Sequence record: OR999189.1 | DNA: 64,000 nt | Source: Enterobacteria phage P922 | Strand: one strand, 5' to 3' | Shown: positions 7,484-9,429 of the stretch, piece by piece | Layout: each line of letters starts with the position of its first letter | How positions within the stretch are numbered: position 1 is the first letter of the stretch | Program-made: the position numbers and the translations under genes | The notes under the pieces: generated by a model | What the model was told of the DNA's origin: nothing | Databases searched by the model: none | The model's input: the letters and a program-made list of their open reading frames with translations, nothing else

Positions 7484-7792
7484 ATGAAACTGACAACTGA
7501 ACAGAAAGTAGCAATTCGTGAAATTTTGAAAACTAAATTGTCCATGGGTATTTCAAACGTGGTTTTTGAAAAGTCTGATGGTACTATTCGTACTATGAAA
7601 GGCACTCGTGATGCTGACTTTATGCCAACTATGCAAACCGGTAAATTGACTGAATCTACTCGGAAAGAATCTACTGATATGATTCCGGTATTTGATGTTG
7701 AGCTCGGTGCATGGCGAGGTTTTTCTATTGACAAATTGATTTCCGTTAATGGTATGAAAGTTGAGCATTTGCTTCAATTTATTGGTAAATAA
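7484..7792 (+). CDS. Hypothetical small protein, 102 aa (T4 31.1 position)
   Basis: ORF between cd and gene 31. Confidence 0.55.
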   Translation: MKLTTEQKVAIREILKTKLSMGISNVVFEKSDGTIRTMKGTRDADFMPTMQTGKLTESTRKESTDMIPVFDVELGAWRGFSIDKLISVNGMKVEHLLQFIGK

Positions 7793-7848: not shown

Positions 7849-8184
7849 ATGTCTGAAGTACAACAGCTACCAATTCGTGCTGTCGGTGAATATGTTATTT
7901 TAGTTTCTGAACCTGCGCAAGCCGGTGATGAAGAAGTTACAGAATCAGGACTTATTATCGGTAAACGTGTTCAAGGTGAAGTTCCTGAACTGTGTGTAGT
8001 TCACTCCGTTGGTCCTGATGTTCCTGAAGGTTTCTGCGAAGTTGGTGATTTGACTTCTCTTCCAGTTGGTCAAATTCGAAACGTTCCGCATCCTTTTGTA
8101 GCTCTGGGACTTAAGCAGCCAAAAGAAATTAAACAAAAATTCGTTACCTGTCACTATAAAGCTATTCCGTGTCTTTATAAGTGA
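7849..8184 (+). CDS. 31: Co-chaperonin gp31 (GroES analogue for capsid folding), 111 aa
   Basis: Length 111 aa and position between cd and rIII as in T4. Confidence 0.9.
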
Positions 8185-8192
8185 TATAAATA
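8185..8192 (+). promoter_or_regulatory. Late promoter core TATAAATA downstream of gene 31 stop
   Basis: Exact TATAAATA octamer. Confidence 0.4.
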
Positions 8193-8331
8193 ATAATATG
8201 AATTGGGTGTCGGAATAATAAGTTAACCGAACAATTCTACGTGGTAGTCTACAACTGAGAGATCTGTCGAAAGAAGATGAAATTCAGAAGAACGTGACTA
8301 CCGAGTTTTAATCTCTAACGAGAATTTTTAA

Positions 8332-8580
8332 ATGATTAAACAATTACAACACGCTCTTGAACTGCAACGAAACGCATGGAATAATGGTCACGAAAACTAT
8401 GGCGCATCTATTGATGTTGAAGCCGAAGCTCTTGAAATCCTGCGTTATTTCAAACATCTGAATCCTGCTCAAACTGCATTAGCTGCTGAGCTTCAGGAAA
8501 AAGATGAACTTAAATATGCTAAGCCTTTGGCTTCTGCCGCACGAAAAGCAGTTCGTCACTTTGTGGTAACACTGAAGTAA
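8332..8580 (+). CDS. rIII: rIII lysis-inhibition accessory protein, 82 aa
   Basis: Length 82 aa and position next to gene 31 as in T4. Confidence 0.85.
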   Translation: MIKQLQHALELQRNAWNNGHENYGASIDVEAEALEILRYFKHLNPAQTALAAELQEKDELKYAKPLASAARKAVRHFVVTLK

Positions 8581-8776
8581 TTTATTGGAGATTCACTGCC
8601 TTAGTGTGAGCTAAAATCGAGGAGCCGTCGAACTGTCTGATTAATGATTTGCGAATCATTATAGTTTTAAGACCCCGACAGTTTTACGGTGTACCTCTTG
8701 AATGTTGACGAGGTTTATGGTTATCCTGTCGGTAAATATTCAAAACCTAAGTACCCCTTGAGGGCTTTCGCAGGCA

Positions 8777-8995
8777 ATGCCAATAAGTCCTGCATTTTCA
8801 TTTAAAAGAGAATTTATAATGGCAAAACAAGCTAAAGCAAAGAAAGCAGTTGAAAAGAAAGTTGGTGATTCTAAACGCGCTGGCTACAAGCGTGGGTCGA
8901 ACTCTCGTATCAATCAAACTGTTGAGAAGATCATGCGCCGAGCACGTGCGGTTCTTCGAGATGATGCTTCTCGTTTTGGTAAGCAGAAAGCATAA
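8777..8995 (+). CDS. Small highly basic protein (T4 30.9 position); probable true start ATG 8819 (58 aa)
   Basis: Lys/Arg-rich ORF MAKQAKAKKAVEKK...; followed by strong terminator. Confidence 0.5.
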   Translation: MPISPAFSFKREFIMAKQAKAKKAVEKKVGDSKRAGYKRGSNSRINQTVEKIMRRARAVLRDDASRFGKQKA

Positions 8996-9000
8996 GTTGA

Positions 9001-9029
9001 GGACTCCTTCGGGAGTCCTTTTTTATTTT
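9001..9029 (+). terminator. Rho-independent terminator
   Basis: GGACTCC-TTCG-GGAGTCC hairpin followed by TTTTTTATTTT. Confidence 0.75.
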
Positions 9030-9047
9030 CCAAAGATTGCACAAAGT

Positions 9048-9099
9048 TGTTTACAGTATGGTTCCTTTGTGATAGTATTATCTTACACAAACAAAGGAG
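9048..9099 (+). promoter_or_regulatory. T4-type early promoter with inverted repeat pairing spacer to downstream SD
   Basis: GTTTAC 9048-9053, -10 near 9072-9078, TCCTTTGTG 9063-9071 vs CACAAACAAAGGA 9086-9098. Confidence 0.5.
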
Positions 9100-9105
9100 A
9101 ATAAA

Positions 9106-9429
9106 ATGAAAACGATTAATCTGAACGCTACAGTTAAAACTAAATGCTTCAATGGTAAATATGATGAAACTATGTGGTTCTTAATGGCAGTTGAAGGTGA
9201 TATTATTGAAGTAGAAACAACAGAAGGTATGGGAACAGATTTCACCTTTACAATTCAAGTTCATAATTTCTTTACTGGTTGGATTTATGAATTGAATACA
9301 GTAATCGTTGGAAAAATTGAACAAAATGAATTAGGTGAATGGTATTATGTTACAGCGCGCCAACGTGCCGAACGCTTAATTGAGAAGATGAAAAAGTTGG
9401 TAAACTTGACATGCAGCACTGGAAAGTAG
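9106..9429 (+). CDS. Hypothetical protein, 107 aa (T4 30.8 position)
   Basis: ORF with SD AGGAG, preceded by early promoter. Confidence 0.6.
   Translation: MKTINLNATVKTKCFNGKYDETMWFLMAVEGDIIEVETTEGMGTDFTFTIQVHNFFTGWIYELNTVIVGKIEQNELGEWYYVTARQRAERLIEKMKKLVNLTCSTGK

Follow-up and report, generated by a model that had tools for sequence, protein, structure and literature searches.

What is encoded between the genes rIII and 30.9 of the T-even phages? Few viruses have been studied as closely as T4; nonetheless, the gap between these two genes is left blank in the records of T4 and T2, and other records fill it with small open reading frames (ORFs) that are inconsistent with one another. We analysed this gap in Enterobacteria phage P922, within a stretch of 64,000 nucleotides from sequence record OR999189.1 (the window). 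An original prediction, made from the sequence alone, had pointed to positions 8581–8776 as an unusually long, structured non-coding stretch that could be a regulatory RNA, a protein-binding site or a recombination/packaging-related element. The comparison with related phages indicates that the gap is a co-transcribed, plus-strand, multi-hairpin RNA, which is under selection and modular, and which in this phage lacks a large core domain.

The non-coding stretch is real, but it is longer than first described. In T4 and T2, gene 30.9 is annotated as 177 nt with a start equivalent to the ATG at 8819. The ATG at 8777 opens a 14-codon extension of 30.9 (8777–8818) that is unconserved: JS98 has an in-frame stop in it and Bp7 lacks the ATG. 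Since the conserved 30.9 start is the ATG at 8819 and not that at 8777, the gap is as follows:

8581..8818, plus strand: intercistronic RNA spacer, 238 nt, non-coding (no tRNA, Rfam or promoter motif; comparative conservation).

Compensatory Changes Support a Series of Plus-Strand Hairpins

The gap was matched in 773 phage records, at one place in each. A rIII/30.9 spacer of 120–400 nt is present in Tequatrovirus, Dhakavirus, Mosigvirus, Gaprivervirus, Gelderlandvirus, Karamvirus, Jiaodavirus, Kanagawavirus, Moonvirus and Roskildevirus. The gap RNA forms a string of independently folding hairpins (A, BC, D1, D2, D3 and one at the 30.9 ribosome-binding site) filling nearly all of the 238 nt:

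8592..8610, plus strand: hairpin A, stem 8592–8596/8606–8610 (core 4 bp), 9-nt loop UGCCUUAGU at 8597–8605.
8619..8697, plus strand: long stem-loop BC, GAGG 8619–8622/CCUC 8694–8697, GCCGU 8624–8628/ACGGU 8686–8690 and GAACUGUC 8630–8637/GACAGUUU 8677–8684, with an apical hairpin.
8642..8661, plus strand: apical hairpin of BC, a perfect 8-bp inverted repeat UAAUGAUU-UGCG-AAUCAUUA.
8698..8752, plus strand: hairpin D1 domain, stem GAC 8707–8709 plus AGG 8711–8713 (G8710 bulged) with CCUGUC 8725–8730, 11-nt loop 8714–8724, conserved tail GGUAAAUAUUCAAAACC.
8754..8764, plus strand: hairpin D2 (CCCTTGAGGG), CCC/GGG with a 5-nt loop, flanked by GUA and CUUUCG.
8770..8793, plus strand: hairpin D3, GCAGG 8770–8774/CCUGC 8789–8793, loop with conserved CAAUAAG, then a U-rich tract.
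8794..8813, plus strand: weak hairpin over the 30.9 ribosome-binding site, AUUUUC 8794–8799/GAGAAU 8808–8813, an inverted repeat.

The module alignments were assembled by pattern matching from sequences that are related by descent; controls with slid partners are the fairer comparison, and counts of shuffles are not to be read as probabilities. The stem-loop BC was paired in 99.1% of the alignment cells (14 variants), compared to 25–62% with slid partners, and 7 of its 25 pairs were changed on both sides. The double changes include G-C to A-U in KAW1E185-type phages and GAAUUAUC/GAUAAUUU in PSD2001. Three invariant G-U positions fit the plus strand only; on the other strand they would be A-C mismatches, thus indicating that BC folds on the plus strand. 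The AT-rich inverted repeat TAATGATT-tgcg-AATCATTA, confirmed at 8642–8661, turned out to be the tip of this covariation-supported stem-loop, and in NHEP29 and the related locus L036 two pairs of the apical arms (UAUCGAUU/AAUCGGUA) are changed on both sides with pairing kept. The distal half of BC is cleanly removed in Sfk20 and S16, where a capped stem is left.

The strings quoted in the original prediction were all found in place (CCGACAG 8675–8681, CTGTCGG 8726–8732, TTGACG 8705–8710 and CCCTTGAGGG 8755–8764). The 7-bp inverted repeat CCGACAG/CTGTCGG is nevertheless not a helix: GACAG pairs with the upstream CUGUC 8633–8637, and CTGTC is the 3′ arm of D1. In PSD2001, the GACAG and CUGUC arms are changed together, while the supposed downstream partner CTGTCG is unchanged.

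Hairpin D1 (8707–8730) was paired in 90.8% of cells (20 variants, at least 8 genera) vs. 30–50% with slid partners; four of its six pairs were changed on both sides, in 23 cells. The stem variants are GAC/GUC, GUC/GAC, GGC/GCC and GUG/CAC, followed by AGG/CCU, UGG/CCA and UAG/CUA. In the window, both the fold and an inverted-repeat scan gave a lower helix of 9 bp (8698–8706 with 8735–8743). A D1 covariance model matched the 64-kb window once (8703–8752, 65.6 bits, E = 8e-17), and a further 55 kb of T4 sequence gave no match. Hairpin A was paired in 85% of cells (16 distinct variants), with two of its five pairs changed on both sides (10 cells); the stem variants CAC/GUG, CGC/GCG and UGC/GCA accompany a conserved loop U(G/A)CC(U/A)(U/A)AGU, and in other genera the hairpin stands directly after D1. 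An alternative register of hairpin A (CACU/AGUG) was unsupported by the variants.

The string CCCTTGAGGG near 8755, which had also been singled out beforehand, is a small hairpin (D2) with a stem that varies compensatorily in relatives: CCCU/AGGG, GCCU/AGGC (Cronus), CCUC/GAGG (L047), GCU/AGC (L048) and CCCC/GGGG (L045). The D3 stem reads (GA)ACUGG/CCAGU(UC) in S16, L035 and L051 (Gelderlandvirus-type), where two pairs are changed on both sides; in L033 it reads GCGGG/CCUGC, which includes a G-U pair. This hairpin (5-bp stem, 14-nt loop) is followed by AUUUUCAUUU; it exceeds the 8-nt loop limit of our terminator scan and hence was not called. Longer hairpins with U-rich tracts occupy its place in other genera.

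Covariance analysis across T-even relatives, which had been proposed as a check, thus supports the plus-strand hairpins by compensatory changes and G-U pairs. Of the three options first named, that of an RNA is supported, as these hairpins lie in the rIII–30.9 unit and outconserve the synonymous sites of rIII.

Folding energy was less informative. By this measure, only 8615–8700 is exceptional (minimum free energy −26.5 kcal/mol, z = −4.1, 0 of 300 shuffles as low), and the small hairpins are unremarkable. For the whole gap, z was −2.0 on the plus strand and −2.15 on the minus strand. As these values are alike and only 8615–8700 stands out, folding energy leaves the question undecided. The description of the stretch as structured was therefore borne out by comparison, but by energy alone it holds for 8615–8700 only; the real support for the structures is comparative, not energetic.

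Several longer-range pairings were considered as well. A putative helix GAAUGU 8700–8705/GCAUUU 8792–8797, predicted from an alignment of close relatives, showed only one-sided changes and a mismatch in JS98. This pairing would enclose D1–D3 and compete with the hairpin at the ribosome-binding site. Pairing of UUUAUUGG (8581–8588) with the D3 loop CCAAUAAG was rejected, not being kept in PSD2001, FL18 and JS98, and so was that of the hairpin A loop CUUAG with CUAAG (8747–8751), which is broken in T4.

Searches for Promoters, Coding Sequences and Known RNAs

An element acting at the DNA level, such as a promoter, an operator or a replication, recombination or packaging signal, was considered as well; palindromes can bind dimeric proteins. 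TTGACG (8705–8710) resembles a −35 hexamer and had been described as such, and TTATCC in D1 presumably bears a partial resemblance to a DnaA box. However, TTGACG lies in the flank and stem of D1, is not conserved (relatives read ATGACG, ATGTGG and TTGGTC) and has no −10 partner. No sigma-70/early promoter site with at least 9 of 12 matches (−35/−10 hexamers, 16–18 bp spacing) was found in 8581–8818, and the late-promoter motif TATAAATA and the MotA box TGCTT are absent from the plus strand of 8481–8830; the late-promoter motif does occur at 8185–8192, just past the gene 31 stop and upstream of rIII. The annotated T4 records that were fetched show no feature in the gap. Furthermore, the G-U pairs and the strand-asymmetric covariation fit RNA, not duplex DNA, and we consider a DNA-level element very unlikely.

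The plus strand is the transcribed strand for 31-rIII-30.9-30.8. The sole terminator called by a simple scan lies 3′ of 30.9, in the window as well as in two other genera, and none was called in the gap:

8999..9020, plus strand: intrinsic terminator closing the rIII–30.9 transcription unit, a 9-bp GC-rich stem followed by TTTTTATTTT.

An equivalent terminator stands 3′ of 30.9 in KMB19 and KPV15. Since the gap has no promoter and the sole called terminator comes after 30.9, the gap is transcribed as a spacer of the rIII–30.9 message. Early, middle and late promoters have all been reported to drive rIII expression (PMC9409239).

Might the gap instead hold a small gene or pseudogene? Some depositors annotate ORFs there, the window contains ORFs of 25–38 aa, and AUGAUG precedes D1 in many relatives. 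The candidates would be a 97-aa ‘ORF D’, a 103-aa ORF of KAW1E185 or mini-ORFs of 19–38 aa. Yet the gap sequences of T4, T2, ACG-C40 and KAW1E185, although nearly identical to that of the window, carry single-base indels relative to it, and because these indels break every frame, there is no conserved reading frame in the gap. Moreover, the stem covariation alters would-be codons, and the annotated ORFs disagree in frame and extent between records. A coding function is thus scarcely credible, in line with the earlier view that no meaningful ORF fits the stretch, and this should put an end to spurious ORF annotation in the gap. A leader peptide starting at the AUGAUG before D1 was rejected, as its frame and length vary in every genus. 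In KAW1E185, a 1-nt deletion yields the annotated 103-aa ORF across the gap RNA (L001:987–1295), and in the old T4 entry X17657 this RNA is covered by ‘ORF D’ (L006:1476–1769).

The absence of a tRNA, also foreseen, was confirmed: ARAGORN found no tRNA or tmRNA in the window or in nine related loci. A search of Rfam 15 at permissive E-values, with window positions 8100–9200 and seven related loci, gave no match inside the gap or inside the core domain of relatives described below; the nearest matches, below threshold, cover the terminator after 30.9. Neither gap nor core had a match in 5,426 E. coli genomes or any similarity to T4 rnaC or rnaD, and exact and near-exact searches of the genome for A, C and D1 returned only this one copy. 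The RNA appears to form a new family, having no match among catalogued RNA families, of a known kind, namely structured phage RNA elements.

Conservation and Exchange of RNA Modules

The window belongs to a Tequatrovirus (T4/T2-like), and its positions 8200–9100 are about 99% identical to Tequatrovirus genomes, e.g., KAW1E185, ACG-C40 and T2. We compared it with JS98, Bp7, PSD2001, FL18, NHEP29 and S16. In these six phages rIII is 70–86% identical to that of the window overall and 51–67% identical at third codon positions. Where present, module B is identical at 46–55 of 55 positions, module C at 29–33 of 33 (23 of 33 in S16) and module D1 at 37–38 of 40. Modules B, C and D1 are 93–100% identical in Dhakavirus, Mosigvirus and Gaprivervirus, and D1 also in Gelderlandvirus. 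Judged from these alignments, the gap is far more constrained than the adjoining rIII synonymous sites, or recently exchanged, or both. The comparison points to strong selection on the RNA structures, which are in places conserved more strongly than the adjoining genes.

The alignments also revealed a point where relatives differ sharply:

8703..8706 (about 8705/8706), plus strand: indel junction with four states among relatives.

Nothing is added at this junction in the window, KAW1E185, S16 and Sfk20; 5 nt are added in T4, a D1-like hairpin of about 50 nt in T2, Bp7, FL18 and PSD2001, and an insert of about 159 nt, holding a multi-branched core of about 140 nt, in ACG-C40, JS98 and NHEP29. 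The ~50-nt insert (T2 L002 ~1010–1060, Bp7 L009, FL18 L012, PSD2001 L011) has the form CAGA-AAAAGGUUA-UCUG, with CAGC/GCUG in L038. It looks like a duplicated D1 (a paralog), because GGUUAUC(C)UGUC is common to both.

The ~140-nt core was found in 405 phage records of many genera (ACG-C40 L003:1013–1158; JS98 L008:799–944; KPV15 L016; Cronus L017:896–1042; Q7622 L018:898–1043). Its consensus fold, derived from 18 distinct copies, has 44 pairs, of which 23 remain paired despite changes on both sides; the core possesses a closing stem of its own, which also covaries, and many G-U pairs that fit the plus strand only. A T-loop-like GGTTCGA on the minus strand of the core was dismissed as coincidental, as the G-U pattern places the core on the plus strand. 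In IMG/VR, the most conserved 20-nt motif of the core was confined to T4-like contigs, with a single occurrence in each; a search of the window allowing up to 3 mismatches gave no match. The window carries a short form of a larger RNA locus, devoid of this core.

Other modules come and go as well. The rIII stop is immediately followed by D2 (GUACCCUUCGAGG) in Karamvirus-type loci, which makes the A-BC-D1 block of the window look inserted between the two; the block 8581–8748 is flanked by two TAA triplets, the rIII stop (8578–8580) and 8749–8751. EP01-type Tequatroviruses have lost A, B and C and kept D1–D3. Relatives also possess an extra hairpin, in which the hexaloop UGUACG is invariant and the 5-bp stem covaries (CCAUG/CAUGG, CUCUG/CAGAG, CUUUG/CAAAG), found in KPV15 (L016 ~790–820), in Cronus (L017 ~1050–1085) and in stretches downstream of rIII in L067 and L048. 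Whole RNA domains are thus swapped in and out between close relatives at one locus, and the series of nothing, 5 nt, a 50-nt hairpin and a 140-nt core at one junction is a natural variant set for probing function.

Of the suggested recombination/packaging-related element, the first half retains some ground in the indel hotspot at about 8705/8706, but nothing supports a packaging element. It could then be argued that the hairpins are an evolutionary by-product, i.e., relics of indel and recombination events or possibly selfish cassettes, whose identity comes from recent horizontal exchange among co-infecting T4-like phages. The four states of the junction, the shuffling of modules between genera, the seemingly inserted block between two TAA triplets and the 55/55 identity of module B between genera would all fit, and module shuffling at conserved cassettes is an established feature of T4-type genomes (PMC2839356, PMC4122927). 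However, compensatory changes that preserve pairing over at least 8 genera show selection on RNA structure beyond mere common ancestry, and the divergence gradient of D1 (identity of about 95% in S16 and 88% in KMB19, with a lower value in KPV15) opposes a single recent transfer. In addition, each genome has a single copy, invariably at this position, and neither terminal repeats nor an associated enzyme gene was seen. We hold this explanation to be unlikely.

Possible Function of the Gap RNA

For the function of the RNA, our tentative preference, at somewhat less than an even chance, is that it acts in cis, governing the processing or stability of the rIII–30.9 mRNA and the translation of 30.9, with its loops read by a protein. 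BC and its neighbours would act as marks for, or barriers to, the processing and decay of the rIII–30.9 mRNA, serving as a protective 3′ structure for the rIII segment and as a structured 5′ leader for the 30.9 segment. D1–D3, the U-rich tract and a weak occlusion of the ribosome-binding site would set the level of 30.9 translation: the hairpin 8794–8813 is predicted to occlude this site. Most other genera have a conserved CUCC 4–6 nt upstream of the GGAAGA ribosome-binding site (CCUC/GAGG in Cronus), with little variation to compare. The conserved hairpin loops make a protein-binding RNA plausible, as judged from sequence conservation, and the loops would most likely be recognised by a protein, for which the basic gp30.9, ribosomal protein S1 or a nuclease are candidates. 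Wherever RNA modules were detected in the loci examined, they are followed by 30.9 or a 30.9 remnant, and L057 has no 30.9 and no detected modules. Gene 30.9 was itself found solely adjoining rIII, so rIII and 30.9 cannot be separated as the partner of the RNA. The rIII product is reported to act on S1 and RegB. The locus points to post-transcriptional control of rIII and the basic gp30.9. The RegB-target motif GGAG occurs in the gap at 8587 and 8621; the first is GGUG or AGUG in other genera and the second lies inside BC helix 1–2.

Some parallels to this proposal are well known. T7 early mRNA has intercistronic RNase III hairpins, and polycistronic mRNAs of T4 are processed by RNase E, e.g., the gene 32 transcripts. 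BC is likewise a long irregular stem-loop between cistrons of one transcript, and its roughly two turns of irregular helix (17 bp of lower stems plus the 8-bp tip) are what the structure of an RNase III-type signal calls for; by analogy, it could leave a 3′ protective hairpin upstream and a structured 5′ end downstream. Unlike such signals, the gap has several distinct hairpins in series, in an order that varies between genera, and its sequence and loops are kept far more strictly than such signals need.

T4 also has translational operators and hairpins that hide ribosome-binding sites: the gp43 operator hairpin, the gp32 pseudoknot, the RegA sites and the hairpins of e, soc, 49 and I-TevI. 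The gap resembles these in being, by all appearances, a structured RNA just upstream of a small gene, with conserved loops that suggest a protein partner and with a short complementary segment 4–8 nt upstream of the 30.9 ribosome-binding site. In contrast to them, the occluding hairpin of the window is very weak, and it contains no internal late promoter such as accompanies the hairpins of e, soc and 49. The gap loops also do not appear to match the gp43 and RegA consensus sequences. As for riboswitches, the only aptamer-like complex domain is the ~140-nt core, which is absent from the window.

Certain observations nevertheless weigh against the proposed action in cis. The hairpin at the ribosome-binding site has a minimum free energy of −2.4 kcal/mol, no better than shuffled sequences. 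Simple stabiliser or processing hairpins need neither conserved loops nor near-100% identity, and the 55/55 identity of B between genera may be due in part to recent exchange and not to selection. In L056 and L059, 30.9 directly follows rIII with no spacer RNA, which means that 30.9 does not require the spacer. The module order varies: in KPV15 and Q7622, D1 and A both precede the core, an arrangement more in keeping with independent units than with a single integrated leader. Finally, the literature searched describes this region nowhere and gives no transcript ends, cleavage sites or binding partners.

It is possible, if rather doubtful, that the hairpins (together with the core in relatives) are excised and act in trans as a non-coding RNA, e.g., one that offers a protein of phage or host a binding platform or a decoy; candidate proteins include S1, RegB or RIII partners, an RNA chaperone and a defence nuclease of the host. 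Loop sequences are conserved whereas stems covary, each module stays recognisable though the order changes between genera, and both modules and core show a patchy pattern of gain and loss even inside a single genus, as accessory traits typically do; besides, the core has its own covarying closing stem, and through processing T4 does produce rnaC and rnaD, stable small RNAs whose function is unknown. With about the same modest likelihood, A, BC, D1, D2, D3, the UGUACG hairpin and the ~140-nt core could constitute an undescribed modular family of trans-acting or protein-binding RNA, with sets of modules varying by phage and a core-less set in the window. Such an RNA may, for example, titrate or guide an RNA-binding protein of phage or host, or else a nuclease involved in defence. 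On the other hand, the gap has neither its own promoter nor a terminator found by the scan, and with no similar host sequence, mimicry of an E. coli RNA is not indicated. The rnaC and rnaD RNAs (species 1 and 2) are likewise phage-encoded, structured, non-coding and derived from longer transcripts, but they share no sequence similarity with the gap and are located elsewhere, in the tRNA cluster. The CsrB/RsmZ sponges are hairpin chains with conserved loops, too; however, the loops of the gap all differ from one another, with no repeated binding motif and no GGA loops in the window. The lack of any experimental sighting in the literature searched also speaks against a trans-acting RNA.

Genes around the Gap

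All genes around the gap lie on the plus strand, in the order dCMP deaminase, 31.2, 31.1, gp31, rIII, 30.9 and 30.8. The immediate neighbours are:

8332..8580, plus strand: gene rIII (82 aa), upstream, from the ORF list; PHROG 1457, lysis inhibition accessory protein, E = 5e-44; annotated as rIII in T4 and T2.
8819..8995, plus strand: gene 30.9 (58 aa, very basic), downstream; PHROG 1427 (unknown function).

A Pfam search with gp30.9 gave no match, and a PDB search gave no relative. Gene 30.8 is present in the window and in T4 and absent from T2, where 30.9 is directly followed by 30.7 (L002 1346–1458).

T4-type phages possess PeSL cassettes, in which a terminator stem-loop is joined to an early promoter (PMC2839356, PMC4122927). 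Like the modules of the gap, these are short conserved non-coding elements at boundaries of insertion, deletion and swapping in T4-like genomes. The gap itself contains no such cassette, having neither a promoter nor a canonical terminator; a PeSL-like arrangement stands instead after 30.9, at 8999–9078, where the strong terminator 8999–9020 is followed by an early-type promoter-like site at 9050–9078 (9 of 12 matches, with TG).

Two genes upstream of rIII, the gp31.1 homologue (window positions 7484–7792) matches the Pfam family WYL_2, an Sm-like SH3 barrel, with E = 7e-21. Folds of this type are often tied to nucleic-acid binding.

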